DNA of 64,000 nt, from assembly GCA_947501935.1 (NCBI GenBank), contig CANMXU010000015.1, positions 33,872-97,871 on the forward strand, given 5' to 3'. A program made the translations under genes and the position numbers. Origin of the DNA: an uncultured Alteromonadaceae bacterium. Its GTDB lineage: Bacteria > Pseudomonadota > Gammaproteobacteria > Enterobacterales > Alteromonadaceae. A model generated the notes under the pieces. The model was not told the origin of the DNA, ran no database searches, and saw nothing but the letters and a program-made list of their open reading frames with translations. Positions 24,407 through 64,000 of this stretch are shown one piece after another; positions within the stretch are counted from its first letter, which is position 1, and each line of letters begins with the position of its first letter.

Positions 24407-27295
24407 TCACTGCGGCTTTAGTGCTTTTAGAGTATCGCAAGTTAAAACGATGTCATCACTAGCTAAATATTCATTCGTTTGCTCGCCAGCATCACTAATC
24501 AAGTTATAACACTCTTCTACTGATTCATTGTTAATATATTTCACAACGCCGTCTGTTATCGCCCAACGGTCAATGCTTTCAGCCGTACTAAATAATTCTG
24601 AAAATAAAGTCGCTCTATTTTCTGGCGTGGCAACCTGCTTGTCGAGATAACCAAGCAAGCTTTGGCTGTCAATGTCATTATTGGCAGAGAGGTTAACACC
24701 TGCAATTTCAGCTATGGTGCTAAATAGGTCTTGAATTTGAACTTTATCGCTAATTTCAGCAATGTCTAAACCAACATTACTGCCTGCTGAAATAACCAAA
24801 GGTACATTAATGCCCCCTTCGTATACGGTACCTTTACTATGTTCTTTGCTAAAAGGTAAGCCCGCTTCTTCAACAATAGCTTGTTTAGGTGTACCGTTAT
24901 CGCCAATAAAAATAATCAAGGTATTCTCCAAAACCTCTGGAGGTAATTGCGATAACAATTCACCAATATAGGTATCTAAAGTTTCTACCGTTGCTCGGTA
25001 ACAATCAGCGATACTGTCAGTACTGGCATTGTTAGTACAAGACTCGCCAGCCTCTTGCTGTAAGTTAATATGGCTAAATTTATCTTTAGGTGGCACATGG
25101 AAAGGGTCATGAGGCGCATTAAAAGCAAGCTGAACAAACCAAGGTTGCTCGCCTTGCTGATTTATCCAACTTAACGCTTCTTCTGCAACAACTTCGGTGG
25201 CATAACCAGTTTCAGTAGCGGTAACCACGGCACCACCTTGCGATGAGATCTGTGTTTTCTGCCAATTAAAGTAGTCGCCTATATTCGCTAAACTTCCTGA
25301 GAAATAATCAAAGCCTTGGTCAGTTGGGTAGGTGCCATCACTATTGCCTAAATGCCACTTACCAAATAGCGCAGAACGATACCCAACAGTATTTAATAGT
25401 TCAGCAATTGTTTCTTCATTGCTAGCTAACTCACCGGTATCTTTCCCTGGATGGGTAACGCCATGTTTAAAGGCATGTTTTCCGGTTAATAAACTCGCTC
25501 TTGAGGGAGAGCATTTAGGATTAGCCCATACATTTCTAAATAAAACACCTGCACTAGCAAGCTCATCAATAACCGGAGTTTGCGCACTATAATTGGGCTG
25601 TTCTTTATAGCCACTGATATTATCAACACCAATATCATCGCCAATTAATAATAAAATATTAACGCTGCCATTGGTTGGAATAGTTTCTTCAGTGGTTGAA
25701 GTAATATCGCGTACGCAGCGAACATTATTTTGCGCCCGTAAAATATCGCCCTGCGGGCCTTTATAATAAAAAGTGCCATTACTACCCATAGCTGAATTAG
25801 CTCCCGGCTCGGAGGCAATATCAAGCTTGTCATTACTGCGCTGCGCACCGGCACCATGCACATCTAAAAGCGTACTGTTCATATACCCAAGCGCACGACC
25901 AAAAGCAATATACACGGCATTACTGCCATCTCCGTCATTATCAACATGAGTGGTTGAGCTCCAATAGTAGCCCCAGTCAGTATCACCTTCTTCGTTTTGA
26001 AATGGCGTACTTTGAAAGATGTCATCAATAGCAGCACTATTATCAGTTTCAGGGGATTTGCTGTAATCAACAAGGCTATGTAGCTCTTTCGCATTAGGTA
26101 AGCGCCAATCACCATAATTTGCTGTGCTATTAAACTCACAGTGCTCAACTGCTTCATCCCAGTTTTTAGCACTAGTATCTTGCTGCTGCCACATTAAATT
26201 GGTGGCATGATCAGAAATAGTGCCATCGCTATTATCAACAAAATCATTTTGCCCATAATCGCTATTATCAGCTACGCAGCGAACATAGAATTTTTTACGC
26301 TCTGTTGGATAACCTTTAATCCGGCCATCGATATAATTAACACCAAACATGGTGAGATCATTAACCATAGTGGTGGTGACATATAGACTGCTAGTTGCGT
26401 ATTGTGCGTCGATAATACGATCGCCAGCAGTAATACCCGCTTGGCTATTTATATCACCAAAAGCCCAATCAAAAGCTTGATCAATAAAAGGTGTGAGTGT
26501 TGAAGTATCACTGCCTTGATAACTACTGGCGTCTTTACCACTAAATAAAATTAATGAATAGGCTTGTTGAATATTAGGTAAGCGCCAATCATCGCGGCCG
26601 CCGTAAGATAAATTTTGGCAATGTTCAGCAGCCTCACTTTGGCTTAATTTGTCAGCATAATTAATAACACCGTCATTATTAAGATCAGAGCTTTGCTGCC
26701 AAGTTAGGCCCGTAATATTATCAGTTACCAGTAGACCGTCATTACTAACGGCATACGTAGGACTATTACCGATATAGTCAGCATCGTAGCCAATATCATT
26801 ACAGTCAGTACTATTACCTGTATTTGACTGATAACACTGAACTTGTGCAGTATCTACAATTGCATAGCTTTGACCATTTTGGCTGTTTATAACCACATAA
26901 TCAGCAACGCTAGCAACACTACCATCATCAACAATTAAGCTTATTTGATAGCTGCCCTCAACATCAGCAACAAAACTGGTAGAAACTGAAGTAGCATTCT
27001 CTAAAGTAGCGCCACTGGCATTGGGTTTCTTGATGAAGCTCCATTGATAGCTTAATGTGTCGTTATCGGCATCACTACTGGCGCTGGCGTCTATGGTAAC
27101 AAGAGAGTTTTTATCAACATGTTGGTCATTCCCTGCGTTCGCCACTGGTGCTGTATTTATTTGAGGAGGTGTAACAACGGGCTCAGATGAATCACCTCCG
27201 CCGCCACAGCCAACAATCGCCAAGGGGAAAGCTATTAGTAATATTAGGTTTTTACAGGCATCTAATGCATCTGTTTTATTAATTATAAAGTACAT
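24407..27295 (-). CDS. Lipoprotein: PKD-like domain + two DUF1566 (Lcl C-terminal-type) domains + C-terminal sulfatase
   Basis: 962 aa with lipobox IVGC. PKD-like APVANAGNDQ...LSYQWSF. Two DUF1566 signatures (GLTWQQ...GRDDWRLPNIQQAYSL; NLMWQQ...YGDWRLPNAKELHSL). Sulfatase core LLIGDDIG...CSPSRASLLTG. Confidence 0.85.
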   Translation of the reverse strand: MYFIINKTDALDACKNLILLIAFPLAIVGCGGGGDSSEPVVTPPQINTAPVANAGNDQHVDKNSLVTIDASASSDADNDTLSYQWSFIKKPNASGATLENATSVSTSFVADVEGSYQISLIVDDGSVASVADYVVINSQNGQSYAIVDTAQVQCYQSNTGNSTDCNDIGYDADYIGNSPTYAVSNDGLLVTDNITGLTWQQSSDLNNDGVINYADKLSQSEAAEHCQNLSYGGRDDWRLPNIQQAYSLILFSGKDASSYQGSDTSTLTPFIDQAFDWAFGDINSQAGITAGDRIIDAQYATSSLYVTTTMVNDLTMFGVNYIDGRIKGYPTERKKFYVRCVADNSDYGQNDFVDNSDGTISDHATNLMWQQQDTSAKNWDEAVEHCEFNSTANYGDWRLPNAKELHSLVDYSKSPETDNSAAIDDIFQSTPFQNEEGDTDWGYYWSSTTHVDNDGDGSNAVYIAFGRALGYMNSTLLDVHGAGAQRSNDKLDIASEPGANSAMGSNGTFYYKGPQGDILRAQNNVRCVRDITSTTEETIPTNGSVNILLLIGDDIGVDNISGYKEQPNYSAQTPVIDELASAGVLFRNVWANPKCSPSRASLLTGKHAFKHGVTHPGKDTGELASNEETIAELLNTVGYRSALFGKWHLGNSDGTYPTDQGFDYFSGSLANIGDYFNWQKTQISSQGGAVVTATETGYATEVVAEEALSWINQQGEQPWFVQLAFNAPHDPFHVPPKDKFSHINLQQEAGESCTNNASTDSIADCYRATVETLDTYIGELLSQLPPEVLENTLIIFIGDNGTPKQAIVEEAGLPFSKEHSKGTVYEGGINVPLVISAGSNVGLDIAEISDKVQIQDLFSTIAEIAGVNLSANNDIDSQSLLGYLDKQVATPENRATLFSELFSTAESIDRWAITDGVVKYINNESVEECYNLISDAGEQTNEYLASDDIVLTCDTLKALKPQ

Positions 27296-46899: not shown

Positions 46900-47286
46900 T
46901 TAAGCCTGCTGTTCCAGTTTATTCAACAATTGGCGAATATCTTCAATTTCTTTTTTACTGGTTGAGTCGCCAATAGCGCGCATTACCAATTTAGAAGTTG
47001 AACCACCAAAGGCTTTCATGGCCAAATCTTTTAATAATGAAGATTGAGTAAACACTTCACTATTAGCGGGACTATATACATGGGCACGATTGGTTTCGTC
47101 ACGAGTGACAAGTGACTTATCATGCATAATTTGTAATATTTTTAATACCGTTGTGTAACCGGTATGTTGCGTTTCACTAACCGCATCATGTATTTGTCTA
47201 ACTGTAGAGGGGCCTATTTTCCATAGGACATTCAATAAAGACAATTCAGCTTCAGTGGGTTTGAGCCTCGAACGTTCACGAGCCAT
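46900..47286 (-). CDS. BlaI/MecI/CopY family transcriptional repressor
   Basis: wHTH LSLLNVLWKIGPSTVRQIHDAV...GYTTVLKILQIMHDKSLVTRD. Start placed at the ATG at 47286 (MARERSRLKPTEAE). Confidence 0.88.
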   Translation of the reverse strand: MARERSRLKPTEAELSLLNVLWKIGPSTVRQIHDAVSETQHTGYTTVLKILQIMHDKSLVTRDETNRAHVYSPANSEVFTQSSLLKDLAMKAFGGSTSKLVMRAIGDSTSKKEIEDIRQLLNKLEQQA

Positions 47287-47309
47287 GGGTAATTCCTTCA
47301 AAATGCACA

Positions 47310-47344
47310 TAACTAACGACAAGCTAGTTAAGAAAACTTAGTTA
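47310..47344. promoter_or_regulatory. Candidate operator upstream of the BlaI-like gene
   Basis: TAACTA-N9-TAGTTA dyad plus a third TAGTTA copy 8 nt further on, 24-58 nt upstream of the ATG. Confidence 0.3.
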
Positions 47345-47463
47345 CGAATAACATCGTATCTTGTGTAGATAAAATGAGCAACATTTTATTACCTTTCCAA
47401 TTACAATATCAAACAATTTTAACTCTTCCTTGAACATATCTTCATCACTAATAACGATGACAT

Positions 47464-47504
47464 AAAATAAAAATACCGCCAATAGTTGTTACTAATAGCG
47501 GTAT
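47464..47504 (-). terminator. Rho-independent terminator after the 910-aa secreted phosphoesterase gene
   Basis: Minus strand: ATACCGC-loop-GCGGTAT followed by TTTTTATTTT. Confidence 0.7.
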
Positions 47505-47532
47505 TAAACTTAAGTCAATTCACTTTAGTCTT

Positions 47533-50265
47533 TTAGTTTGCAACGACTGTTATATCATCAATATAACTTGTGCCTAAAATACCGTATGCGTATATAAGTG
47601 CAGAAGTATCAGTAGCACCAGTGGTAAAACTAACTTCTTGAGTTACATAGGTGCTACTCGTTGTTCTTTTAACAACTTTTGCGCCACCATAATTATTCGC
47701 ATAAAGGCCAACTTTACCGGTAGTTTTAACTTTTGCACTAAAGGTATAAGTTGTATTTGGCGTTAAACCAGTAATGGTTGCTTTAATATCACCTCCTTCA
47801 GCAATTTCACCGGCAAAGCTACCACTATTAGCATTACCACTTTCACGGCTAGCTAAGTAGTATTCCCAGAAAGTGTCGGTTTCAAAGCCACCATTTTCAA
47901 CAATTTCACTAGGGCCCGGATCAACTACCGTAGCATCAGCACTAATGCTTACATTATCAACAAAGGCTTTTTCAGCATTTCGGTTACCATTAGTAGCAAA
48001 TTGCACAATCACTTGTGCTTGATCATTAGCTGCTGCTGGTAAAGTAAAGCTTTTACTCGCCCAAGCTGTATCTTGTGTTACTTCTAGGGTAGTCCAAGTT
48101 GAACCGTCAACTGACCATTGTACGGTTAAGTTTTCACTATCAACAAAACCTATAGTAGTACGGTCATAGCTAATGTTTACGTTCTCATAACCTGTTGTTG
48201 AAAGGGTTTTGCTTAACACCGCACCATTTTTAACTCGTGCACCGTAAGTACCGCCATTTGAAGCTGCTGTAGCAATTTCAGTTACGCCGCTACCTTCGTT
48301 TGTCCAACCGCCAGCAGTTAAAGTGCCGCTTTCAAAGTCATCATTGAATAGCTCACCCGTACCCGGAGTACCGCCACCACATGCACTATCATCAAGGTCA
48401 AGTACAAGTTTTGATGCTGGACCATTTTCACGGTCGTTCATATCAAAACCGTTAGTAGTAGAATCAGATGAAATAACCACACCATTATTATCGCCGCCAT
48501 CAACCCAGCTTTGCACAACAGCAAGACCTGCTGATGAGATAGTAATTGAACGACTACCTACTGTTTCAGGAATAAATGAAGACATTAATACATCTTGATG
48601 AGCCGCACCAGAAACACTGTTCCATGTAGCATCACCTTCAGTCCAGCTAAATGCACCAGAATGGACATTATAAGAACCGGTCGAGTTATTAGTTACTTCC
48701 ACTTCGATGCTCGCCGCAGTAACAATATTACAGCTATCAACACTGCTTACATCCCAAGCAATTAAAGTATTTAAGTCGCCATATGTACTATCGCCAATAT
48801 CAGCCAATAGCTGATCGGCGTGATCATCAAAGTTTTGACCTGACAAGGTTTCAGAAATATAAGTATCGGCCGCTGCATCTAATTCAACATCGCCTGATGG
48901 TGTAGTACCACCACCGCCGCCAGAGCTACCATCTCCTTCACCAATAATGGATAAACCACTACCACTATGGGTTAAGGTCATCACTTCACCAATACCTTGC
49001 GCGCTCCACCAGTTAATACCTGTTGGTAATACTGTTGTATCTGCAGCACGTTGAGCGGCGGTGATAGTACTTGCACCTGCATCAAATTGAGCGGTGCGCA
49101 TTTCTACAGAATCTGGCGAGACCGTAATAATTTTAAACTGCTGAATACTGGCCGCATCTAAAGTCCAGTCATAACTTTTATTTGCTGAACGAGCATTAGC
49201 GCCCCAGCTACCTTCACCGGCAAAAACAGTACCACCGCTGGTGGTAACTACATAACTACTGCCGCTCGGTTTAACTGCTTCTGTAATTTTATTAAGATGA
49301 GTATCAGACTCAATTGCCAAGTTCATCGCATTGTCATAAAAAGTATCTGCCCACCAAGAAAATAATTGTGGATTTTCATCTTTACTAGCTAAATGCGGAA
49401 AAAATGGTTTGTGGTATTGGGCAAAACGCCAGCTAACACTTGAACCGTTAGCTTCCATATCACTCTTTAACCAGTTTTTCTGTTCGGTTCCTTCAGTAGA
49501 CCAGCCACTTTCTTGGTATTGCGAGTTCAAAGTATAAACACGTAAAAGTGAGCCTACGTTAAAAGCACCGTAAGTATCATCGGTAGTACAGTTGCCATCA
49601 CCATCAAAATCTACACCAAAAACACGACATAAAGTTTTGTAGTCGTCATCTTCATGGTTACCAAGGGTTGGCACTAACGGGTATACACGACTATATGCAA
49701 TACCGTCGATGGTATCAGCCGAGTATGTCACTTTAAAATCTTCAAAATACTGCTTCATTTGTGAAGTATTATTAGCATCGGTAAAGTCACCACCATGCAT
49801 AATAAATAATGGACGAATCTTAGCTAACAGTTGGTTACCTAAACGGCGAGTGTCCCAGCCTGAACGGGTATCACCACCAGCAAGCATAACAAAAGGTGTA
49901 TCGTCATCAGGAGCGGTTTTAAACCATAAACGCTCACCACAATTACCGTCTTCACAAACACGATAATATACCGGTGAATTAGCAGGTAACCCGGTTAAAC
50001 GAACAAAGTGACTTTTTAATGAGCCGTCAAATGTTTCAGTATTAGCCACTTGAGCATCTTGCCAGTTACTTTCGTTAGTGGTGAAACCATAAGTGACATA
50101 GGTATCTTTTGAGCCACTCGTTTGTGAATAAGCAATTACCGCATTTTGTGATGGGTCTGAATCCCAAGTTACACGATGGTAATCAATAGTTGCACTTGCT
50201 GAACCAGCAGCTGTTGCGAGCGCTAAGGCAAGCATGCTTCGGCCAAAAGGTAGTCGTTTCATCAT
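47533..50265 (-). CDS. Secreted multidomain protein: PAP-type N-terminal beta-sandwich + calcineurin-like metallophosphoesterase + DNRLRE-type domain + beta-sandwich module + CBM4_9-like module
   Basis: 910 aa with signal peptide (..AAGSASA-T). MPE motifs GGDTRSG, HGGDFTD, GNHEDDD, QYHKP, ESDTH. DNRLRE-like block (AADTYISE...WTEGDATWNS...MNDRENGPASKLVLD). C-terminal ENGGFE...TPNTTYTFSAKVKTTG. Confidence 0.85.
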   Translation of the reverse strand: MMKRLPFGRSMLALALATAAGSASATIDYHRVTWDSDPSQNAVIAYSQTSGSKDTYVTYGFTTNESNWQDAQVANTETFDGSLKSHFVRLTGLPANSPVYYRVCEDGNCGERLWFKTAPDDDTPFVMLAGGDTRSGWDTRRLGNQLLAKIRPLFIMHGGDFTDANNTSQMKQYFEDFKVTYSADTIDGIAYSRVYPLVPTLGNHEDDDYKTLCRVFGVDFDGDGNCTTDDTYGAFNVGSLLRVYTLNSQYQESGWSTEGTEQKNWLKSDMEANGSSVSWRFAQYHKPFFPHLASKDENPQLFSWWADTFYDNAMNLAIESDTHLNKITEAVKPSGSSYVVTTSGGTVFAGEGSWGANARSANKSYDWTLDAASIQQFKIITVSPDSVEMRTAQFDAGASTITAAQRAADTTVLPTGINWWSAQGIGEVMTLTHSGSGLSIIGEGDGSSGGGGGTTPSGDVELDAAADTYISETLSGQNFDDHADQLLADIGDSTYGDLNTLIAWDVSSVDSCNIVTAASIEVEVTNNSTGSYNVHSGAFSWTEGDATWNSVSGAAHQDVLMSSFIPETVGSRSITISSAGLAVVQSWVDGGDNNGVVISSDSTTNGFDMNDRENGPASKLVLDLDDSACGGGTPGTGELFNDDFESGTLTAGGWTNEGSGVTEIATAASNGGTYGARVKNGAVLSKTLSTTGYENVNISYDRTTIGFVDSENLTVQWSVDGSTWTTLEVTQDTAWASKSFTLPAAANDQAQVIVQFATNGNRNAEKAFVDNVSISADATVVDPGPSEIVENGGFETDTFWEYYLASRESGNANSGSFAGEIAEGGDIKATITGLTPNTTYTFSAKVKTTGKVGLYANNYGGAKVVKRTTSSTYVTQEVSFTTGATDTSALIYAYGILGTSYIDDITVVAN

Positions 50266-50892
50266 TGTTGTTCTCTCTTGTTATTTTTTATTATATAGAT
50301 ACGCTATTGAGCGCTTTTTTTGATACTGAAAGTTCATGCGATATCAATAGTTAGTCACTACTGTATCCCACAGATTACCAGGAGGTTTTCAAAGTGAAGT
50401 GTTCACGCTAATTTACCCAACAGCGCTATTTTCATTTGATTATTGTGATTCTTTTTCTGATTTGACAACACGGCTATTACTTCAAATAATACTCAGTTAA
50501 AAGTTGGCATTATTGAAATACTCTTTCCTTAGGAGGTGACAATTACCCCGTCACCTTTTTCATACATATCCACAAAACAACCGGATTGATTTATCTTTAG
50601 AGCTTTACTGAATAAAAATTTAAGCTACATATCAAAAACTTAAAAGCAAAGTACTAAGAATACACAAATAAACCTCAGCCCACTAAGTACAATCCTTAGC
50701 ATTTCATGGACACTTTCAAGGTAAATGTAAATAGCTTACATATCAAGATAAATAATACATATGTACAAACAAAATAGTATTTACCTGCCATTTAACAAGG
50801 AAATAAATTACCATTATTTTGTACACAAAAATCAGTTTAATCTTAAAATACCAACACCATTGAACACTTAATATTGAAATAAAATTAGTCAT

Positions 50893-50914
50893 AAAAAAGG
50901 CCTCAATTGAGGCC
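50893..50914 (-). terminator. Rho-independent terminator after the 720-aa paralog
   Basis: Minus strand: GGCCTC-AATT-GAGGCC followed by TTTTTT. Confidence 0.75.
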
Positions 50915-50965
50915 CTTTATTATGGTGTTATTATTAATCCATTAATAATAACGTAGTTGAAGAAA

Positions 50966-53128
50966 TTAGTTCTCAACTAAATCCCAGTCATCGACATAAC
51001 TAGTACCTGACGAGCCATATACGTAAATTTCTGCTGACGTATCGGTTGAGCCGGTAGTGAAAGTTAAGCTTTTCTTAGTATAGCTACCTGATGTACTGGT
51101 AGTTGATAACTTGGTATTGCCGTAATTTCTTACATATAAGCCAATTTTACCTGTGGTTTTAACATAAGCACTTAAGGTGTAAGTGGTGTTTGGTGAAAGA
51201 CCAGTTACCGTAGTTTTAATATCACCGCCCGATGAAACTTCACCAGCAAAGCTACCAGTTCGTGCGTTATTACTAACTCGGTCAGCTATCCAATATGACC
51301 AAACTGTATTACCGTCTTCAAAGCCCGAATTTTCAAGTAATACAGTTGGCTCTGGATCAGGATCTGGCGTTGGCTCACCTGACGCTTCGTCGGCAGTAAT
51401 ACTGACATTATCAATAAAGGCTTTTTCAGCATTACGGTTACCACTAGTAGCAAACTGAATGGTTACTTGCGCTTTATTATCTGCTGCTGTTGGTAATGTG
51501 AAGGTTTTATTTGCCCAGCTACCACTTTGCGTGGTTTCAAGTGTAGTCCAGCTTGAACCGTCAACTGACCATTGCACAGTAAGGTTTTCACTACCGGCAA
51601 AGTTTAAAGTTTTACGGTCGTAAGCAATGCTCACATTTTCATAATCTACCGTAGAGAAGGTTTTACTTAAAACCGCACCATTTTTAACACGTGCACCATA
51701 GGTACCGTCTTTTGAGGCTGCCGTGGCAATTTCAGTAACACCACTGCCAGCATTTGTCCAACCACCCGCAGTTAACGTACCGCTTTCAAAGTCATCACTA
51801 AATAATGTAGACGTTCCTGAACCACCGCCAGTACCAGGATTTTCACCCGGTAAATAACCGTCAACATCGGTTGCCCAAGGCGAATCATCTTGAGTTAAGT
51901 CAACAATACTTGGATTCCACGTTGTGCCCGCGGCTTCATGCTCGGCAATAATATCGTTCGGTGCATCTTCACGGAACCAATGTTTAAAGTATCCTAGGCT
52001 TGAATGCACCGCGATACGTTCATAAGAATCATAAGTCATAAACTTAGCTTCGGCAGAGTCCATAGCTGCTTCGAACTCATTAAAACGATTACTGTTACCT
52101 TCGGCGTCAATTTCTTCCCACCAGGTTTCATACTCAGAGTCTTGCCATGCATCGTACAGATCATTTACTTCAGTTCCCATCACAATACGTTGATCACCCG
52201 CAATGGCGTCAGCTTGTGCTAACAATAACTCACCGTCACTTTTAAACTTGTTGGCATTTGAGGTGTAGTTCATAAAAGCAGCATGATTTGATACCGATAA
52301 TAAATGCTCAGATACGTATTTTTCTTGGCCGTTATAAGTTTCACGCTTCGATTTTATGTAAGAAGAAGGGTAAGTTTGCGAGAACAGGAACGGTCGAGCA
52401 CCTTGAGCCTCAAGTGTTACGTTCCATTCATCGGCACGGTCTTGTGCGGCTTTAACAAATTCAATAAGTGGATACATTAAATGTTGAGATTTTGGTTCTT
52501 GGTCATTTTGCACACCAACAAAACCAGCATCAGGATAAGCTTGGTTAAAACGACCTACTGCATCCATAATAGTTTCTGCGGCATGAATATGCTCATCGTT
52601 AGCGGTATCACCCATGTAATCAATGCTAACTTGCTTGTCACCATTTTCGTCATACCAAGTATCCCAAAGGTAGAATAACCCCCATACTTTGATATTTTTG
52701 GCATTGGCCTTGCGGATAAAGTTGGCTAAACGGTCTGCGTCTGGAATTTCGCCCGCTTGTAGCTCAGGGTCGTATTGCCAGATCATATTAGAGATATAAA
52801 TGGTATTGATAGATTTATTGGCATAAAAGTCTAACAATAAATCTTGAATATTTTTGTGGTTGTCTAAAAAGCGCTCTTTAACAGTTTCATTTGGCTGTGG
52901 GTCTGACGGATCCGCCATGTCCCAATATCGAGTGCGATTTTCAGAGCTTTCATTACCCGGTATCTGGTTGTAACGGTCAACTTCAACTGAATTCCATAAC
53001 CATACCGCACGACGTACATCTTTATCTAAAACATCCCAGTATTTATGTGCCGTATTGGCCGCAAGTACATTGGTTGTAAGTGTCGACAAAACTACACAAG
53101 CTAAACTTATGAATTTTTTCATCATCAT
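50966..53128 (-). CDS. Secreted protein: unrecognised ~430-aa N-terminal domain (possible TIM-barrel glycosidase-like) + the same beta-sandwich/CBM4_9-like C-terminal cassette
   Basis: 720 aa with signal peptide (MMMKKFISLACVVLSTLTTNVLA). The C-terminal ~285 aa align residue-for-residue with the other two paralogs. The N-terminal domain contains VQNDQEP and MGTEVND, reminiscent of clan GH-A acid/base and nucleophile strands (inference only). Confidence 0.85.
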   Translation of the reverse strand: MMMKKFISLACVVLSTLTTNVLAANTAHKYWDVLDKDVRRAVWLWNSVEVDRYNQIPGNESSENRTRYWDMADPSDPQPNETVKERFLDNHKNIQDLLLDFYANKSINTIYISNMIWQYDPELQAGEIPDADRLANFIRKANAKNIKVWGLFYLWDTWYDENGDKQVSIDYMGDTANDEHIHAAETIMDAVGRFNQAYPDAGFVGVQNDQEPKSQHLMYPLIEFVKAAQDRADEWNVTLEAQGARPFLFSQTYPSSYIKSKRETYNGQEKYVSEHLLSVSNHAAFMNYTSNANKFKSDGELLLAQADAIAGDQRIVMGTEVNDLYDAWQDSEYETWWEEIDAEGNSNRFNEFEAAMDSAEAKFMTYDSYERIAVHSSLGYFKHWFREDAPNDIIAEHEAAGTTWNPSIVDLTQDDSPWATDVDGYLPGENPGTGGGSGTSTLFSDDFESGTLTAGGWTNAGSGVTEIATAASKDGTYGARVKNGAVLSKTFSTVDYENVSIAYDRKTLNFAGSENLTVQWSVDGSSWTTLETTQSGSWANKTFTLPTAADNKAQVTIQFATSGNRNAEKAFIDNVSITADEASGEPTPDPDPEPTVLLENSGFEDGNTVWSYWIADRVSNNARTGSFAGEVSSGGDIKTTVTGLSPNTTYTLSAYVKTTGKIGLYVRNYGNTKLSTTSTSGSYTKKSLTFTTGSTDTSAEIYVYGSSGTSYVDDWDLVEN

Positions 53129-53935
53129 TATTCCTATTATTAATTATTATTGGTGACTACTTTTTTAAACCAAAATATCGAAAACAAAGCTAACTAAAGA
53201 CTCACTTCCCTTAGTAAGTTTTCTCCGTGAATAATTTAAATCTTTTGAAATCCATTTGATAAGCAAAGACAAGAAAGAATTAACAAGGCGCATACCGCCC
53301 CACACTTTCGATGACTTTCATATTTGTTGCAGATATTTTACAACTGAAGCATAATTCTTAATCAAAAATATTGCAAGAATTTTATAAAAACAAGATAAAA
53401 CAGACGAAAACAACACTAACACATTGTTAAATAAAGAATTTGAACCTTTGTCCAATGAAGTGAAAGCTATTCTATTAACATAATTGCACATGACGACAAT
53501 TGAAAAGAAATGGGAAGCATTCGAAACGCTAAACCATCCTCATTTGAAAAGCAAAAAGGTTATCACGCCATTACTTAACTGCTCCCTCTTCGAGATGAAA
53601 AAAAGTTAAGTTATTATTTTTAAATAGATTAATTAAATTGATAAATATCACTGAGTAGTAATTTTATTGATGAAAGCTTCTCTCTTACCCTGTTTTAGCT
53701 GCAACTTTCATTTCTATAACTAATCAAACTAAAGGTCAGCAAGCAAATTCTAAAAGGTACTAAAAAGGGTTTTTAACGCAAAATTAAACGCCATCTATCA
53801 ATGATGAATTTGTACATAAAATCAAAAAAATAATTAAATAGACGTTTAAAGGATAATTTAAGGCAAATAAGTTCAAGCTTAATAGCATAACTATTTAGCC
53901 TATTTAGTGAGCTATGTATGAGCTTTAAGGCGAGG

Positions 53936-54673
53936 TTAGTTTTTGTCGATAATATTACGGGTAAGCCGCGGGTAGTTAGTAAAAATACCATCAACACCTA
54001 GTAGCTGACAAAAGGCAATATCTTGGCTTTTATCCACTGTATATACATTAACTTTTAAGCCGCGTTGATGGGCATCGTCAACCAAGTTTTGGTTTAAACG
54101 TTCAATCGCGAGATTAAGCCCACAAACACCTAATTTCTCAGTAAAGGCGGCATAATCGAGCGGGCAACAAGCAATTAAGGCTGCCGTTTTTACATGAGGT
54201 AAACAGTGCTTTATCGCCACTAATAAATGATGATTAAAAGCAGAAATAACAAACTGCTCTAGTGAAAAGTTACTGACCTTAATCGCTTGAATAATTTCAC
54301 TGGCAAGAGCCTGTGCTATATGTTGAAGTTGCTCAACAGAGGTGGTGGTATCTTTGAGTTCAATGTTAACTAGGCAGCGGCCATTAATACAACCAAGCCC
54401 TTGCGCCAAAGTGGGAATGCCCTGCCCTTGGCCGGCATCTAAAGCTTGTAACTGCTCAAGCGAGTATTGCTCAAAATGACCACTGCCATTGGTGGTCGTT
54501 TCTAAGTAAACATCATGACGAAGAATAAACTCGCCACTGTGATGATAAAAAGCGTCAAGCTCTATCGCATCAACTTGTTGATTTATTGCTTGTTCAAAGG
54601 CCAGCAAGGTGTTTTCTGGAAAGTCACCGCTGGCGCCTCGATGCGCAATAATCTGCATTTTAGCTTTCGCCAT
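53936..54673 (-). CDS. Glycerophosphodiester phosphodiesterase (GDPD family, cytoplasmic UgpQ-like)
   Basis: [22 protein letters not shown]...DAIELD. Start is ambiguous (TTG 54679, ATG 54673, ATG 54658). The first two overlap the psd 3' end. Confidence 0.85.
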
Positions 54674-55571
54674 GCTCAATATTGCTGTTGCCGCTTACTT
54701 CACTAGCAGCACACAAATCAGCATAATGCTCACCTAAGCGTGTTACCGTTTCAGGACCCGCATTTTCATTGAATTTGATCATCTTCGGCGCAAAAGTAGA
54801 AACCACAGTTGAACCTAACTTAAAGCGCCCCATTTCATCACCTTTTTCAAAGTGAATAGCATCGACACCTGTAGCCGGGTATTTCCATCTAAAAATATCT
54901 TTTCCGGCTGGTGGAGTAATCGTGCCAGCCCAAGTAGTTTCAATACTGGCAACTATGGTTGCCCCTACTAATACCATCGCCATTTCGCCATGGGCGGTAT
55001 CAAATACGGCAACAACACGTTCATTGCGCGCAAATAAATCAGGCACATTGTTAGCCGTTAACGGGTTAACAGAGAATAATTCACCCGGCACATAAATCAT
55101 TTCACGCAAGGTTGCTGCCATAGGCATATGAATACGGTGGTAATCTTTAGGTGCTAAATAAATACAAGAGAATGTACCGCCTTGAAATGGTTTGGCCGTT
55201 GCCTCATCTCCACCTAATAAACTGGTTAAACTGTAATTAAAACCTTTGGCTTGAATTAATTGGCCGTCAACAATATCACCTTGCTGACTAATTGCGCCAT
55301 CTACTGGGTAGCATAAAGCATTTACATCAGGGTCGATTGGGCGTGCACCCTCTTCAAGTTCACGGGTGAAAAAGTCATTGAAGGTTTTAAAATCGCTGGC
55401 ATTTTTTAACTTGGCTTCACCCATGTTAATGCCATAAGCTTTAATAAATTTACTAATCAGTGCTGTGGTTAACCAACCCGCTTGTGCGGCGGCAAGTTTG
55501 CCCACTAAACGAGAAATAGCATGTTTAGGCATAACATACTGCAGGGCAATTTTTACTTTATCGAATGACAC
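54660..55571 (-). CDS. psd: Phosphatidylserine decarboxylase proenzyme
   Basis: 303 aa with the self-cleavage motif FKLGSTVV. Confidence 0.96.
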
Positions 55572-58016: not shown

Positions 58017-58490
58017 ATGAAAAAAATTGCCATTTTTGTTGATGTTCAAAACATTTATTACACCACTCGCGATGGCTTTAGCAAACAGTTTAACTACCGT
58101 AAGCTTTGGCAATTGCTCAGTGAAGAAAATGAAATTATACTCGCCAATGCTTACGCGATTCAGCGCAGTGACGACCAACAACATAAATTTCAAAAAGCGT
58201 TAAAACACATTGGCTTTAACGTAAAATTAAAACCTTTTATTCAACGCAGTGACGGCAGCGCCAAAGGCGACTGGGATGTAGGTATTACTATTGATGTAAT
58301 GGAAGCCGCCCCAGAAGTAGATGAAGTTATATTGCTTTCAGGTGATGGTGACTTTGACTTGCTGCTTCGAAAAATAAAATCAAGCTACCAGGTCGCAAGC
58401 CATGTTTATGGTGTGCAGCAACTTACCGCTAATTCATTAATTATGGCGGCAGATACATTTACCGCCATAGATGACAATTTACTGCTTTAA
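58017..58490 (+). CDS. NYN-domain (LabA/DUF88-like) protein
   Basis: 157 aa: KIAIFVDVQNIYY...DVGITIDVME...VILLSGDGDF, an acidic-residue pattern typical of NYN/LabA nucleases. Confidence 0.8.
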   Translation: MKKIAIFVDVQNIYYTTRDGFSKQFNYRKLWQLLSEENEIILANAYAIQRSDDQQHKFQKALKHIGFNVKLKPFIQRSDGSAKGDWDVGITIDVMEAAPEVDEVILLSGDGDFDLLLRKIKSSYQVASHVYGVQQLTANSLIMAADTFTAIDDNLLL

Positions 58491-60965
58491 CACTTTTGGC
58501 TTTTGGCTTTTGGCTTTTGGCTTTTGGCTTTTGGCTTTTGGCTTTTGGCTTTTAGCTGCTACTTTACGATAGCTAATCATGAAAAACATTGCCAATAATA
58601 GCATGAGTTGACTGCTACCTCCGCCACTACTCGCTTGTGGCGTAACCACAATCACTTCTACTTCAATAGTAACATTAACGCTATCACTGGCTGATAAACC
58701 AGTACTGTCTGTCACCGTTAAGGTGAAGGTTAATTCACTGTCTCTTTGCGGGGCAATAAAGTTAGCATTTAGCGCGTTAGCATTATTTATTTCTACGGTT
58801 TCGCCAGCACTTTGTTGCCATAAATAAGTTAAATTATCATCATCAAGGTCGGTCACTGTCGCGGTTAAATTAACTTGTTGACCAGCATTACCAGAAAAAT
58901 CATTACCTATATTAACTTGTGGAACATGTTCACCTTCAGAAGCTGAAATATTAATAGTAGCTAAATTGGGTTGGCCTAAAGTGACGCCATTTTTAGGATC
59001 AAATAAGCGCACCAATAATAATTCTGCGCCTTCAGCAAGGTTATCACTTAGCAGGTTTACGCTAATATTTTTCGTGTTATTGTCGCCATCAGCCCAGTTC
59101 AAACTGCCTGATGCTAAGGTAAAGTCTTCAACATCAGCAGAGCCTGAAACTAACTGCCAATTTACTGCAACAGCATCGCTACTTTGCCCATCGTTTTCGT
59201 CAATACGTTGAACTTCTATATTGACCGCTTGCCCTTCATCACCTTGATATTGGCTCGCATTAAAACGCAAACTGCCTTGAGCGGTAGCCAGAGTATTATC
59301 TTTTAGTATATATAAGCCGCTATTAATATCGCTAACGAGAACATTTCCGCTTGGTAAAAACGGATAAACACCCCACGCGCCATTAAAAGATGCATTATTT
59401 GAAATAGGGTAAGTATCAAAAAAGCCGACTTCACTAGGCAGCAACGGATCGCTAATATCTAATACCGTTAAACCGCGTTCATAATTCGACATATAATAAC
59501 GGTTACCACGTACATAGCCGTTGTGATCTATGGTGCGGGTAGAGCCTGTCCAAGTAGATAATAAAGAAGGTGCGGTTAAATTGGTTATATCAAAAAGCCT
59601 CAGCGTGGTATTTAGTCCTTTTGATTGCTCGTCTAATTCATCGTGCACCAACATCATCATTTTATCTTCGCTATACCAACCAGAATGTACATACGAGGCG
59701 TTAGCATAACTGGTAGTACTTAGTTTTTCTGGCTGAGCATTATTGGTTTTATCCCATAATTGAAAGTCGTTTTCATTAAAATCAAACATCACTTCACAGT
59801 GATCACTACCATTAACACACTGGCTATCTTTACGCTGGTCTTCAATAACCATCGAACTAATATCATGACTATATTGCTGACGATCATTACTAGGTATAGG
59901 GCTGGGCTTATAAACACTGGATAATTGTCTCGGATTTTCCAAACTGTAAGTATTAAAGCCACCGCCATTAAAATTTGATCCGGCAATATGTAAATACGGC
60001 GTTTTCCCCGTTAAAGCCACACCGGTAGAATAGTCAACATTGCTTAAATAAACATTATGAGCACTAATATCAGAGCTGTCATTTGCTGCAACAGTAACGC
60101 TATTTGGTAATTGATTTAAGTCTAAAATCATAATACCAACATTAGCATTATCAGCAGTTACATAGGCGTAGCTCTGCCATTTAGTAAGTTGAATATCAAA
60201 ATACTGATAAATTTTTATGTCACGCCAACCGGTAGTTTCGCTGGCAATAGTATTAATAACACTTGGCGCTGACGGGTTGGAAACATCAACCACACTTACG
60301 CCGTTATCTAAACCGATAATCGCATACTCTTTTTGCGAATTCAGATCGTAATGCCCCCAAATATCATTCGCTTTACCGGGGTTAGTAGAAAAAGAATTTA
60401 AGGGTAAATGCGCAAGCAAATCTATATTGTTACACGGAAAATCACCTGATAAGTTGTCAATGCAAAGACTATTGGTTTGCACTTGCTGAAGTTTTGCATA
60501 ACTTTGTAATTTTCGTGCTAGTACCACACTTTGCACTGAAGCCGGATTATCTTGTGCCTTTTTATCAACAATAACGGTAAAGCCTTTATTTGATAATAGT
60601 TGAACATATTCAGCTGGCACACCAGTTAAATAGGTTAAATTGCTTTGAGCTTTTACCGCGAATAAGTCAGCTCGTTGATAATTTGGAATTACTGGAATTA
60701 AGTCACTGAGTAAATAAAATAAGGTATCAGCATTTTCAATAAAATAACTGCCCTTGCTGACTCTAATTTGGTCGCCTTTATTAGCATTTTGCACTGCATA
60801 AAAAATACTTTTACACGGAGCATTAACGTCATCACAACGGCCAACATCATCACCTGAATCAGCAACATAACGAGCTTTATCATGCTCTGCATGCGCATCA
60901 GCTTGCTTGATAAAACTAACCAGCGCTAACATCAACACACTAACAAAAATTAAATACTTACTCAT
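58479..60965 (-). CDS. Secreted choice-of-anchor-B/LVIVD-repeat protein with Calx-beta and PKD-like domains and a GlyGly-CTERM-like sorting signal followed by a Lys-rich repeat tail
   Basis: 828 aa with signal peptide. FPCNNIDLLAHL plus LVIVD-type repeats (GVSVVDVSNPSAP, GLTVLDISDPLLP, SGLYILK). Calx-beta-like block, then PKD-like (LTYLWQQSAG). SSGGGSSQLMLLLAMFFMISYRK is followed by VAAKSQKPKAKSQKPKAKSQKPKVLKQ. Confidence 0.85.
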   Translation of the reverse strand: MSKYLIFVSVLMLALVSFIKQADAHAEHDKARYVADSGDDVGRCDDVNAPCKSIFYAVQNANKGDQIRVSKGSYFIENADTLFYLLSDLIPVIPNYQRADLFAVKAQSNLTYLTGVPAEYVQLLSNKGFTVIVDKKAQDNPASVQSVVLARKLQSYAKLQQVQTNSLCIDNLSGDFPCNNIDLLAHLPLNSFSTNPGKANDIWGHYDLNSQKEYAIIGLDNGVSVVDVSNPSAPSVINTIASETTGWRDIKIYQYFDIQLTKWQSYAYVTADNANVGIMILDLNQLPNSVTVAANDSSDISAHNVYLSNVDYSTGVALTGKTPYLHIAGSNFNGGGFNTYSLENPRQLSSVYKPSPIPSNDRQQYSHDISSMVIEDQRKDSQCVNGSDHCEVMFDFNENDFQLWDKTNNAQPEKLSTTSYANASYVHSGWYSEDKMMMLVHDELDEQSKGLNTTLRLFDITNLTAPSLLSTWTGSTRTIDHNGYVRGNRYYMSNYERGLTVLDISDPLLPSEVGFFDTYPISNNASFNGAWGVYPFLPSGNVLVSDINSGLYILKDNTLATAQGSLRFNASQYQGDEGQAVNIEVQRIDENDGQSSDAVAVNWQLVSGSADVEDFTLASGSLNWADGDNNTKNISVNLLSDNLAEGAELLLVRLFDPKNGVTLGQPNLATINISASEGEHVPQVNIGNDFSGNAGQQVNLTATVTDLDDDNLTYLWQQSAGETVEINNANALNANFIAPQRDSELTFTLTVTDSTGLSASDSVNVTIEVEVIVVTPQASSGGGSSQLMLLLAMFFMISYRKVAAKSQKPKAKSQKPKAKSQKPKVLKQ
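58493..58555. repeat. Heptanucleotide microsatellite (CTTTTGG)x8 plus one degenerate copy
   Basis: Perfect copies span 58493-58548, followed by CTTTTAG. It starts 2 nt after the NYN gene stop and encodes the (KSQKPKA)n tail of the convergent 828-aa ORF. Confidence 0.95.
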
Positions 60966-61455: not shown

Positions 61456-64000
61456 TTAGTTTTCAACTAAAGTAATATCATCTACATAACCAGTACCAGA
61501 GCCACCATAAGCGTAAATCGTTGCTGATGTATCCGTTGCACCCGTTGTAAAGGTTATCGTTTTAGTGGCGTAATTTGAGTTAGTCATTGAGCTACCTACA
61601 CGACTACCACTGCCAGCAAAGTCTTTCGCATAAATGCCAACACTGCCTGTAGTTTTCAAAGCCGCGGTCGCTGTATATGAGGTATTAGGTTTTAAGCCAG
61701 TTACTAATGTTTTGATGTCGCCACCAGCATTAATTTTCCCTGCATAACTACCGGTATTGGCATTACTATTTACTCGACTAGAAATGTAATATAACCAAGT
61801 AGTATTTTCTTCAAAACCACCATTTTCAAGTAATGCACTTGGTTCTGGATCAGGATCTGGCGTTGTACCACCGTCTGATACGTCAGCAGTAATGCTTACA
61901 TTGTCAATAAAGGCTTTTTCAGCATTTCGATTGCCATTAGTAGCAAATTGAATAATCACTTGTGATTGATCATTCGCTGCTGCTGGTAAATCAAAGCTCT
62001 TAGTTGCCCAATTTAAATCTTGGGTTACTTCTAGCGTTGACCAGCTTGAACCGTCAACTGACCATTGTACGGTTAAGTTTTCACTACCGGCAAAACCTAA
62101 GGTTTTACGATCATAACTAACGTTTATGCTTTCATAGCCAGAAGTAGAAATGGTTTTACTTAACACTGCACCATTTTTAACACGAGCACCATATGTACTA
62201 TTGTTAGAGGCTGCCGTAGCAATTTCAGTTACGCCGCTACCTTCGTTAGTCCAACCACCAGCAGTTAAAGTACCGCTTTCAAAGTCGTCGCTAAATAGTT
62301 CACCGTCACCTGGTGTACCACCGCCGCCACATGCGCTATCATCAATATCTAAAATTAATTTAGCAGCTGGGCCGTTTTCACGGTCGTTCATATCAAGGCC
62401 GTTGTTAGTACCGTCAGATGAAATTACTACACCATTATTATCGCCGCCATCAATCCAACTTTGCACAACAGCAAGACCAGCATTTGAAATAGCAATAGTG
62501 CGGCTCCCCGTTGTTTCAGGAATAAATGAAGACATTAAGATATCTTGATGACCCGCGCCTGAAAGGCTGTTCCAAGTTGCGTCACCTTCAGTCCAGCTAT
62601 ATTTGCCAGAGTGAACGTTATAGCTACCCGTTGAGTTGTTAGTTACTTGCACTTGAATGCTTGCAGCTGTTACCACATTACAGCTTTCAACACTGCTTAA
62701 GTCCCATGCAATTAAGGCATTTAAGTCACCGTAGGTGCCGTCACCAATATCAGCAAGTAATTGGTCAGCATTATCATCAAAGTTTTGACCAGCTAAAGTT
62801 GCAGAAATAAAGGTATCTGCTGCCGCATCTAGCTCAACATCACCTGTTGGCTGTGGATCAGGATCTGGCGTTGGGTCGGTACCATCACCATCATCAATAA
62901 TTGATAAACCTGAGCCGCTTTGCACTAAGGTCATCACTTCGCCAACTTCGTTTGCACTCCACCAGTTAACACCGGTAGGTAAACGAGTAGAATCATTTTT
63001 ACGTTGATTTGCCGTTAAAGTACTTGCACCAGAATCGAACTGCGCCGTACGCATTTCAACTTTATCTGGTGTTACTGTGATAATTTTAAACTGTTGAATA
63101 CTGGCTGAATCTAAGGTCCATGCATAAGATTTATTTGCTGAACGAGAGTCTGCACCCCAGCTACCTTCACCAGCGAAAACTGTACCGCCATTGGTTGTTA
63201 CAGCAAAACTACTACCACTTGGCTTAACCGCTTTAGTTACTTTATTTAAATGAGTATCTGATTCAATAACAAGGTTCATACCGTTATCATAGAAGGTATC
63301 AGCCCACCACGTAACTAACTGTGGATTTTCATCTTTACTTGAAAGGTGTGGGAAGAAAGGTTTGTGATACTGACCAAAACGCCAAGTGGCGCTGCCGCCA
63401 TTATTTTCCATATCGCTTTTAAGCCAATCTCTTTGTTCTCTGCCTTCAGTTGACCAACCACTTTCTTGATATTGTGAGTTTAAAGTATAAACACGTAGTA
63501 AATCACCTACGTTGAATGCGCCGTAAGTATCATCAGTAGTACATTTTCCGTCACCGTCAAAGTCTACACCCCATACACGACAAAGTGATTTATAGTCGTC
63601 GTCTTCATGGTTACCTAAAGTAGGTACTAATGGATAGATACGCTTATAAGCAGTTCCGTCGATAGTGTCTGAAGAGAAAGTATCTTCCCAATCAGCAAAA
63701 AATTGTTTCATTTGTGAGGTATTATTATCATCAGTGAAATCACCACCGTGCATAATAAATAAAGGACGAATCTTAGCTAATAGTTCGTTACCTTTACGGC
63801 GAGTTGACCAGCCTGAACGAGTATCGCCACCAGCTAACATTACAAATGGGCTATTATCGTCAGGTGCTGTTTTAAACCAAAAACGATCGCCACAGCTTGT
63901 ACCTTCACATACACGGTAATAAACCGGAGAATTAGCAGGTAAGCCGGTTAAACGCACAAAGTGACTTTCGAAGTTACCATCAAAAGTTTCCGTATTATTT
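61456..64000 (-). CDS. Second copy of the metallophosphoesterase + DNRLRE + beta-sandwich + CBM4_9-like secreted protein (5' end runs off the window)
   Basis: The track ORF starts at an internal Met (63957). The frame stays open to position 64000, and the extra residues (..NNTETFDGNFESHFVRLTG) align with ..ANTETFDGSLKSHFVRLTG of the 910-aa paralog. Confidence 0.85.
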   Translation of the reverse strand, partial: NNTETFDGNFESHFVRLTGLPANSPVYYRVCEGTSCGDRFWFKTAPDDNSPFVMLAGGDTRSGWSTRRKGNELLAKIRPLFIMHGGDFTDDNNTSQMKQFFADWEDTFSSDTIDGTAYKRIYPLVPTLGNHEDDDYKSLCRVWGVDFDGDGKCTTDDTYGAFNVGDLLRVYTLNSQYQESGWSTEGREQRDWLKSDMENNGGSATWRFGQYHKPFFPHLSSKDENPQLVTWWADTFYDNGMNLVIESDTHLNKVTKAVKPSGSSFAVTTNGGTVFAGEGSWGADSRSANKSYAWTLDSASIQQFKIITVTPDKVEMRTAQFDSGASTLTANQRKNDSTRLPTGVNWWSANEVGEVMTLVQSGSGLSIIDDGDGTDPTPDPDPQPTGDVELDAAADTFISATLAGQNFDDNADQLLADIGDGTYGDLNALIAWDLSSVESCNVVTAASIQVQVTNNSTGSYNVHSGKYSWTEGDATWNSLSGAGHQDILMSSFIPETTGSRTIAISNAGLAVVQSWIDGGDNNGVVISSDGTNNGLDMNDRENGPAAKLILDIDDSACGGGGTPGDGELFSDDFESGTLTAGGWTNEGSGVTEIATAASNNSTYGARVKNGAVLSKTISTSGYESINVSYDRKTLGFAGSENLTVQWSVDGSSWSTLEVTQDLNWATKSFDLPAAANDQSQVIIQFATNGNRNAEKAFIDNVSITADVSDGGTTPDPDPEPSALLENGGFEENTTWLYYISSRVNSNANTGSYAGKINAGGDIKTLVTGLKPNTSYTATAALKTTGSVGIYAKDFAGSGSRVGSSMTNSNYATKTITFTTGATDTSATIYAYGGSGTGYVDDITLVEN

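Follow-up and report, generated by a model that had tools for sequence, protein, structure and literature searches.

The closest described counterparts of the protein considered here are glycoside hydrolases (GHs) with a (β/α)8 barrel. They comprise clan GH-A, with the GH5_18 β-mannosidases (PDB 7lr8, 6mp7 and 9y4v), the GH42 β-galactosidases, GH1 and GH10; the GH18 enzymes of clan GH-K; the GHL10 protein Cwp19 of Clostridioides difficile (PDB 5oq3); and the C-terminal domain of PgaB, a GH153 hydrolase of poly-N-acetylglucosamine (PNAG). In TIM-barrel enzymes, the C-terminal ends of the strands form the catalytic face. GH18 carries the motifs FDGxDxDxE and M-x-Y-D, GH85 carries FDGWxxNxE, and GH18 is not known to have an invariant strand-7 Glu. 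We examined a window of 64,000 nucleotides from contig CANMXU010000015.1 of an uncultured Alteromonadaceae bacterium (positions 33,872 to 97,871 of the forward strand; coordinates below are those of the window), and in it a minus-strand gene encoding a 720-amino acid (aa) secreted protein. Its aa 24–400 (the barrel domain) resemble a TIM-barrel glycosidase of clan GH-A or GH-K, yet fit no family tested. On balance, we favor the interpretation that this region is the catalytic domain of an unclassified secreted (β/α)8 GH-like family, which would be tethered by carbohydrate-binding modules (CBMs) and act on sulfated N-acetylhexosamine (HexNAc) glycans with retention of configuration in the style of clan GH-A.

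The ORF and its signal peptide

The open reading frame (ORF; 50966..53128) begins with MMMKKFISLACVVLSTLTTNVLA followed directly by ANTAHKYWDVLDKDVRRAVWLWNS, and the boundary between the signal peptide and the mature protein lies between these two sequences. Both the ORF and its start were present as described in an earlier model-generated note made from the letters alone (the sequence-only reading), which had singled out the interval 51800..53128. This interval corresponds to aa 1–443 and comprises the signal peptide, the barrel domain and a Gly/Pro-rich linker that is missing from stand-alone homologues. Orthologues of the 720-aa protein showed 83% and 77% identity, and the ratio of non-synonymous to synonymous substitution rates (dN/dS; Nei-Gojobori method, with dS near saturation) was 0.04–0.06 for the N-terminal domain and 0.04–0.09 for the whole gene, thereby indicating that the ORF is not a chance reading frame. 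The N-terminal domain is under strong purifying selection.

Equivalent hydrophobic leaders were observed in homologues, directly ahead of a conserved NTAHKxWD. This segment forms the mature N-terminus of the protein (53036–53059, aa 24–31) directly after the cleavage site, and N25, A27, H28, W31 and D32 were almost invariant among 14 close family members. Residues 17–29 were poorly modeled (predicted local distance difference test score, pLDDT, <50); the mature N-terminus may fold back into the barrel mouth.

Absence of a family assignment and rarity of the barrel domain

When the full 720-aa protein was compared with Pfam and NCBIfam, the sole match was CBM_4_9 at aa 597–705, and none fell on the barrel domain. 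Neither Pfam nor NCBIfam gave a model over the barrel domain in the 14 close family members or in 41 distant relatives; among the latter, one weak GH18 and one weak EndoS TIM-barrel match (E ~0.002, below the cutoff) appeared, in one or two proteins. In PDB sequences (E ≤ 10), the only match to a single-sequence phmmer query was an insignificant one to a transcriptional regulator (E 0.15), and the family profile had none. A search with a 32-sequence profile listed at least 6 proteins and added no annotated relatives among the matches listed. Protein P0065, which contains DUF4874 and DUF4832, was considered as a bridge to a known family and rejected, because the family profile matched a region apart from these domains (aa 515–810). 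Alignment with hhalign showed no similarity of the family profile to E. coli ChiA (GH18; probability 0.4%) or to PgaB (probability <1%), each a weak test with a single sequence on one side. The inability of the sequence-only reading to place the N-terminal domain by eye was thus borne out by the searches of Pfam, NCBIfam and PDB with sequence and profile. It is by these three resources that the domain is unclassified; a CAZy family without a Pfam model or structure, such as the keratan-sulfate hydrolase family GH111, could be its home.

The barrel domain occurs very rarely. Among 5.8 billion clustered proteins, searched by word index, the single sequence retrieved 6 relatives and the profile 14; among 1.84 billion cluster representatives, searched exhaustively with a HMMER profile, 75 reached E ≤ 1e-3 and 23 reached E ≤ 1e-30. 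A pattern-seeded scan across 185,579 species, each represented by one genome, identified 15 loci, the hosts of which were Thalassotalea, a Colwellia metagenome-assembled genome (MAG), Prolixibacteraceae, Labilibacter, Marinoscillum (two species), Lutibacter, Cytophagales, other Bacteroidota MAGs and a Victivallales MAG. The public names of homologues are "hypothetical protein" or refer to accessory domains only. Literature searches on homologue accessions, on polysaccharide utilization loci (PULs) with arylsulfotransferases and on new marine GH families found no account of the barrel family, and no mention was found of the six homologue accessions looked up. One member (33% identity) lies on a 9.8-kb contig (L022) in a record titled "MAG: Bifidobacterium breve"; since the family otherwise occurs in Bacteroidota, Colwelliaceae and Victivallales, this contig looks mis-binned.

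Predicted fold and invariant residues

An AlphaFold2 (AF2) model built with a 14-sequence alignment had a mean pLDDT of 76.9 and a predicted template modeling (pTM) score of 0.80. The pLDDT was >90 over most of aa 100–320, with a dip to ~64–75 at aa 150–170, and the low-confidence parts were the signal peptide, a poorly predicted, lineage-specific insert (aa 47–83), parts of aa 320–350 and 380–420, and the linker. Strands were predicted at aa 40–45, 107–116, 147–153, 205–208, 248–253, 282–287, 314–320 and 369–375, forming eight alternating strand-helix units and hence a (β/α)8 barrel. We regard it as very probable from this model that aa 24–400 fold as a barrel, in agreement with the fold guessed in the sequence-only reading.

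The best Foldseek matches in PDB were mostly distant glycosidase barrels. Cwp19 ranked first (E 6.6e-7, template modeling (TM) score 0.44/0.52), and GH18 chitinases and SleL (E from 2.8e-6, TM 0.32–0.41 on the query), the GH5_18 β-mannosidases (E from 7.2e-6, TM 0.40–0.45 on the query) and the PgaB C-terminal domain (E about 2e-5, TM 0.36–0.44) were also matched, as were GH1, GH10 and GH156. Identities over the structural matches were 8–17%, and the modeled domain has no close solved structure.

Conservation was assessed in an alignment of the barrel domains cut from 37 diverse relatives, down to about 18–23% identity. W45, D209, E211, P212, Y288, E320 and H375 were invariant, and M286 (36/37), N195, G205 and Y380 were near-invariant. 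In the AF2 model, each invariant residue is placed at, or at most 3 residues past, the C-terminal end of a barrel strand, with W45 on strand 1, D209 and E211 on strand 4, Y288 on strand 6, E320 on strand 7 and H375 on strand 8. The motifs VQNDQEP and IVMGTEVND, in which the sequence-only reading had sought an acid/base and a nucleophile, were located at aa 206–212 and 314–322, and the two Glu residues picked there by eye, E211 and E320, are the invariant residues predicted to lie past strand 4 and at the end of strand 7, 109 residues apart. W45 is probably a sugar platform. In our estimate, the barrel domain is probably a glycoside hydrolase.

A catalytically dead barrel, acting as a glycan-binding lectin in the manner of chitinase-like lectins or as a scaffold, would be consistent with the two binding modules already present on the protein and with the copies located outside loci of carbohydrate-active enzymes (CAZymes). 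However, both Glu residues, D209, Y288 and H375 are absolutely conserved down to the lowest identities in the alignment, whereas chitinase-like lectins have typically lost the catalytic acid, and dN/dS is about 0.05. We therefore consider a dead barrel very improbable.

Comparison with clan GH-A, GH18, Cwp19 and PgaB

The features shared with clan GH-A are the predicted barrel, an invariant Glu that lies just past strand 4 and precedes a Pro (x-E-P), an invariant Tyr past strand 6, an invariant Glu as the last residue of strand 7, a His or aromatic residue conserved on strand 8 and a spacing of about 110 residues between the two Glu residues; GH5_18, GH1 and GH10 structures were among the top Foldseek matches. 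In contrast to clan GH-A, the barrel family resembled none of the GH-A Pfam families in sequence or profile, replaces the Asn of N-E-P with a variable residue (Q/N/V/I/E) and has an extra invariant Asp two residues before the Glu; the TM scores to GH5_18 were about 0.42–0.48 at 8–11% identity. In Foldseek, barrels of GH18, GHL10 and GH153 reached scores as high as those of GH-A. The GH-A-like character proposed in the sequence-only reading is therefore retained for the predicted barrel and the strand-4 and strand-7 Glu residues, but not for the hallmark Asn or a GH-A profile match, and Foldseek showed no preference for the clan. We consider the chances of a GH-A-like two-carboxylate mechanism to be evenly balanced.

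On strand 4, the superfamily shares the motif F-[DA]-G-x-[HQN]-x-D-x-E-P, as in FDGIHYDIEP or FDGVNVDIEP. This motif (F-D-G-x-x-x-D-x-E) and the strand-6 M-x-Y resemble the motifs of GH18 and GH85, so that a substrate-assisted mechanism stays live. The same fold and family would then represent a GH18/GH85-like (clan GH-K) endo-β-N-acetylhexosaminidase, in which E211 would be the acid/base, D209 would polarize the 2-acetamido group, Y288 would stabilize the oxazolinium and E320 would bind the substrate rather than serve as a nucleophile. GH18 chitinases accounted for about a fifth of the top 50 Foldseek matches, which included 6k7z, 3aqu, 6idn, 4s3j, 5jh8 and 1ur9, and the weak GH18 and EndoS matches among the distant relatives point in the same direction. 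The barrel family is associated with HexNAc-processing enzymes, as is GH18, and its recurrent partners GH20 and GH123 are themselves HexNAc-specific and substrate-assisted. However, only D-x-E (D209 and E211) of the GH18 signature D-x-x-D-x-D-x-E is kept; at the position of the preceding Asp, we observed Q in 17 of the 37 relatives, H in 13 and other residues in the remainder. The barrel family also lacks a conserved Asp after the strand-6 Tyr and possesses E320, invariant at a position where GH18 has no such Glu. No core member matched PF00704 or any other Pfam GH18/GH85 model, and the hhalign comparisons with ChiA and PgaB were negative. We consider the substrate-assisted alternative unlikely.

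Similar to the protein described here, Cwp19 is secreted and has a TIM barrel joined to surface-binding modules. Both have an acidic residue past strand 4 and a strand-6 Tyr, whereas GHL10 has a conserved Gly (Gly328) on strand 7 where the barrel family has invariant E320 (PMC5765458). The barrel domain did not match Pfam GHL10 (PF02638), and the identity was 9–11%. With PgaB, it shares a strand-4 Asp and a strand-7 Glu in a barrel, and PgaB acts on a HexNAc polymer; however, the hhalign comparison was negative, the TM scores were low, and PgaB, which processes biofilm in the periplasm and carries a fused deacetylase, is not a CBM-tethered secreted enzyme. We did not place the domain in any of these families, because it lacks the Asn and profile similarity of GH-A, the triad and profile of GH18, and the strand-7 Gly and Pfam match of GHL10.

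Genomic context of the family

Close members were fused to CBM_4_9, F5/8-type-C, Laminin_G_3, cadherin-like/Big_9 and type IX secretion system (T9SS) sorting domains, and distant members to CBM9, CBM30 and CBM11. Of about 15 non-redundant loci, 8 had a GH20 gene less than 10 kb from the member, and these 8 fall into five independent locus architectures; SusC/SusD adjoined members in three PUL types (gene orders in Table 1). In the Colwellia MAG, the gaps around the 396-aa member were 9–50 bp. The common thread of these loci is the breakdown of glycans rich in β-linked HexNAc, often sulfated and sometimes fucosylated or mannosylated, that is, of glycoprotein or glycosaminoglycan-like material. 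A HexNAc-containing, often sulfated glycan is accordingly a possible substrate of the barrel domain, and we hold this view with some reserve.

Several features of these loci were recorded in addition. An arylsulfotransferase-like β-propeller protein with a faint purple-acid-phosphatase (PAP) N-domain recurs in Bacteroidota PULs that hold a family member; in three of them (L002, L004 and L025) the locus also encodes a Sulfotransfer_1/3 protein and a transporter of the ChrA type, and in L008 the arylsulfotransferase-like gene was the only one of these. No account of such a "sulfotransfer" module inside catabolic loci was found in the literature searched. In freshwater and Cytophagales MAGs, two tandem paralogues (about 800 and 705 aa) with He_PIG, CBM_4_9 and T9SS tails are directly followed by a small GH16 and a T9SS-tailed GH20.

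The CBM cassette and its phosphatase-like partners

The sequence-only reading stated that the protein shares its targeting cassette with two phosphoesterases, and this was confirmed: aa 441–720 are 66–68% identical to the C-termini of the proteins encoded at 47533..50265 and 61456..63957, the cassette copies of which lie at 47536–48351 and 61459–62298. The CBM_4_9 match (PF02018) scored 32.4 bits against a gathering cutoff of 25.9 and is preceded by a Pro/Glu/Thr linker (aa 582–596). The AF2 model of the cassette, of low confidence (pLDDT 62.5), showed two β-sandwiches, and its Foldseek matches were single CBMs, namely a porphyran-binding CBM (8xmz, TM score normalized to the target 0.71), CBM22, CBM61, CBM16 and CBM4. 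On this model, the cassette consists of two CBM-like β-sandwich modules.

The partner genes, both on the minus strand, encode full-length paralogues with 76% identity over about 830 aa, which indicates that the second "phosphoesterase" is not an independent recipient of the cassette. Their layout is a PAP N-domain, a Metallophos domain, about 350 unassigned residues and the cassette. The first lies 700 bp downstream of the barrel gene. The second runs to the end of the window and is cut there; because a tblastn match reaches 63996, its true start is probably beyond the listed GTG at 63957 and may lie outside the window.

Housekeeping genes separate the third cassette protein, 8 kb away, from the pair formed by the barrel gene and the first phosphatase-like gene. 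Two unusually long AT-rich spacers, at 53129–53935 (about 800 bp) and 50266–50965 (about 700 bp), flank the barrel gene and contain no ORF of ≥100 aa. Upstream, the 800-bp spacer is followed by a GDPD gene, psd, rsgA and orn. A hairpin, the perfect palindrome GGCCTCAATTGAGGCC, lies at 50899–50914, just past the stop codon. Rfam gave no match in 47000–55000, and promoter and terminator scans remained at background level. A common promoter or operon for the three cassette proteins was considered and rejected, given the 800-bp upstream region of the barrel gene's own, the hairpin after its stop codon and the distance of the third protein.

The barrel and phosphatase-like pair was also found in Thalassotalea sp. 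PLHSN55 and on one metagenome contig, giving three Colwelliaceae-type loci in total, and this occurrence indicates that the fusion and the pairing are older than these species. In the Thalassotalea-type arrangement, the pair directly follows genes for a TonB-dependent receptor, an Asp/Arg-hydroxylase-like protein, a TPR-double-sulfotransferase protein (about 1000 aa), a small sulfotransferase and SapC, and a GH20 or DUF5107 gene is located near it. The window does not contain this cluster, so that the pair seems either to have moved to its present place or to have lost its transporter cluster. The suggestion of the sequence-only reading that the barrel acts on the same substrate as the phosphoesterases gained weak support: the pair is kept in all three loci, whereas the recurrent partners in the wider family are GH20, sulfatases or sulfotransferases, and SusC/SusD rather than phosphoesterases.

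The neighbors of the barrel gene bring into view an alternative in which the barrel is not a glycosidase and would instead be another hydrolase or a lyase, such as a sugar-phosphate or sulfate ester/diesterase or a metal-dependent enzyme, working with the adjacent phosphatase-like protein on a glycan that is phosphorylated or sulfated. The three loci with the cassette-bearing PAP-like metallophosphoesterase, the GDPD phosphodiesterase upstream in the window, the EEP-family phosphoesterase that follows the cluster in the Colwellia MAG, and the faint PAP N-domain of the arylsulfotransferase-like proteins adjoining the Bacteroidota homologues are all consistent with such an activity; metal binding is conceivable for several of the conserved His, Asp and Glu residues, and TIM barrels other than glycosidases were among the Foldseek matches. 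However, the invariant set of two Glu, Asp, Tyr, Trp and His on strands 1, 4, 6, 7 and 8 is the canonical glycosidase layout and is unlike the metal-ligand sets of amidohydrolase, xylose-isomerase-like and GDPD barrels, no profile match to such families was obtained, and most family contexts contain no phosphoesterase. We regard this alternative as improbable, and still more so the specific case that the barrel itself is a new enzyme cleaving glycan esters or diesters.

Several observations weigh against the interpretation that we favor, a retaining GH-A-style glycosidase. No GH20, sulfatase or transporter gene lies near the barrel gene in the window, where the neighbors are the phosphatase-like paralogue pair and the GDPD phosphodiesterase, and the Lutibacter and Labilibacter copies occur in non-CAZyme contexts among housekeeping genes. 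The Foldseek matches are weak (TM 0.35–0.52, at the low identities given above), and SfnG monooxygenase, sugar-phosphate isomerase-like and isocitrate lyase barrels scored in the same range. The Asn that is the GH-A hallmark before the acid/base Glu is missing; the residue is Q in the present protein, and across the 37 relatives it is Q in 25, N in 5, V in 4, I in 2 and E in 1. The strand-4 D-x-E together with the strand-6 M-x-Y fits a GH18-like substrate-assisted mechanism equally well.

Table 1. Coordinates of the features of the barrel gene and its partner in the window, and loci and gene orders of the family in other genomes
Feature	Position	Strand	Evidence
Whole gene, 720-aa secreted multidomain protein	50966..53128	minus	ORF list; stop codon 50966–50968
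Sec signal peptide, aa 1–23 (MMMKKFISLACVVLSTLTTNVLA)	53060..53128	minus	Read from sequence; typical Sec signal
Unclassified, predicted (β/α)8 barrel domain, aa 24–400	51929..53059	minus	AF2 model; unmatched in Pfam, NCBIfam and PDB sequences
W45, last residue of strand 1 (40–45), invariant aromatic	52994..52996	minus	37/37
D209-Q210-E211, just past strand 4; E211, candidate general acid/base	52496..52504	minus	37/37 for D209, E211 and P212
M286-N287-Y288, end of strand 6; Y288, invariant putative active-site Tyr	52265..52273	minus	Y 37/37, M 36/37
E320, last residue of strand 7 (314–320), candidate nucleophile	52169..52171	minus	37/37
H375, last residue of strand 8 (369–375), invariant	52004..52006	minus	37/37
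Linker, aa 401–441, Gly/Pro-rich, predicted disordered	51806..51928	minus	pLDDT <50 for aa 423–440
Cassette module A, aa 442–581, CBM-like β-sandwich without Pfam model	51386..51805	minus	AF2 all-β model and Foldseek
Cassette module B, aa 597–720, CBM_4_9-type CBM	50969..51340	minus	Pfam PF02018, all-β model
Downstream partner, 910-aa PAP-like metallophosphoesterase with the same cassette	47533..50265	minus	Pfam Pur_ac_phosph_N and Metallophos; cassette 66% identical
Thalassotalea-type upstream cluster	L001 1025–9383; L010 1167–9376		Conserved gene order
Arylsulfotransferase-like PULs	L002 8137–9645, 13820–16094; L004 17460–21194; L025 17392–21084; L008 6490–7878		
Tandem-paralogue loci	L021 224–5026; L023 733–4766; L020 6948–11730		
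Prolixibacteraceae MAG: sigma/anti-sigma, SusC, SusD, arylsulfotransferase-like, family member, unknown, GH20, ChrA, sulfotransferase, GH123, DUF5107			
Marinoscillum (two species): GH20, hybrid two-component regulator, family member (CBM and T9SS tail), SusC, SusD, arylsulfotransferase-like, sulfotransferase, ChrA, galactokinase			
Bacteroidetes MAG (DolZOral124): WbsX-like, arylsulfotransferase-like, family member, SusC, SusD, GH97, GH106			
Colwellia MAG: GH20, sulfatase, sulfatase, GH20, 396-aa family member, GH20, EEP phosphoesterase, M12B protease, sulfatase, GH3			
Cytophagales/Bacteroidota MAGs: family member, family member, GH16, GH20 (T9SS)			
Victivallales MAG: GH123-like, sulfatase, GH29, GH92, family member			

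Other genes in the window

Immediately downstream of the phosphatase-like gene, the segment 44946–47322 (minus) encodes a BlaI-like repressor (Penicillinase_R) and a BlaR1/M56 sensor-protease fused to a TonB C-terminal domain. Between the two cassette loci, an 828-aa secreted-type protein with an LVIVD repeat, Calx-β and PKD is encoded at 58479–60965 (minus). A 962-aa protein encoded at 24407–27295 (minus) contains PKD, two Lcl_C and a sulfatase domain; Lcl_C proteins adjoin the orthologous gene pair in L001 and L010.

Proposed mechanism and significance

The ORF, the limits of the domain, its missing family assignment, its rarity, the purifying selection, the invariant residues and the genomic associations are observations; from these we infer hydrolase activity, the roles of the two Glu residues, retention of configuration and the substrate class, and the fold and residue placement are predicted. 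The protein would be exported through its Sec signal peptide, and a type II system would probably release it, as elsewhere in Colwelliaceae; the two C-terminal CBM-like modules would then dock it on a glycan polymer. The barrel would cut internal glycosidic bonds by a clan-GH-A-style "4/7" double displacement in which the anomeric configuration is retained, with E211 as the general acid/base and E320 as the nucleophile. D209 may tune or position E211, or may contact the C2 substituent of the substrate; Y288 would hydrogen-bond the nucleophile, and W45 and H375 would line the −1 subsite, which D209 and Y288 would help to complete. The most likely class of substrate would be a sulfated HexNAc glycan, either a glycoprotein glycan of animal type or from algae or a glycosaminoglycan-like polymer, and GH20/GH123 hexosaminidases and sulfatases would then trim the products.

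We propose tentatively that the domain founds a new GH family, endo-acting on sulfated HexNAc glycans of marine or animal type and absent from Pfam, NCBIfam, PDB and probably CAZy. Equally tentative is the suggestion that the fusion to the cassette of the phosphatase-like proteins in Colwelliaceae points to a glycan that is linked both glycosidically and by phospho- or sulfo-esters, and that is attacked by a set of enzymes targeted by this cassette. New GH families are reported regularly; the architecture is familiar and the family unclassified, so that the finding brings no conceptual surprise and is of interest chiefly to specialists. The cassette, present on a glycosidase-like and two phosphatase-like proteins, represents a case of module shuffling and could reveal the natural substrate through binding, and the stand-alone homologues of 380 aa should be easily expressed. 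If the interpretation that we favor is correct, the barrel domain would be a candidate founding member of a new GH family, and the genomic signature of this family would be a clear one: in Colwelliaceae, Victivallales and marine Bacteroidota, the genes alongside encode hexosaminidases of GH20/GH123, sulfatases or sulfotransferases, and transporters of the SusC/SusD or TonB-dependent kind. Chains of keratan-sulfate-like, mucin or N-glycan type and algal glycoproteins are among the substrates concerned, and endo-acting enzymes of this type would be useful as tools for glycan analysis. In marine carbon turnover, as in the foraging of host glycans, the enzymes that open up sulfated amino-sugar glycans form bottlenecks.

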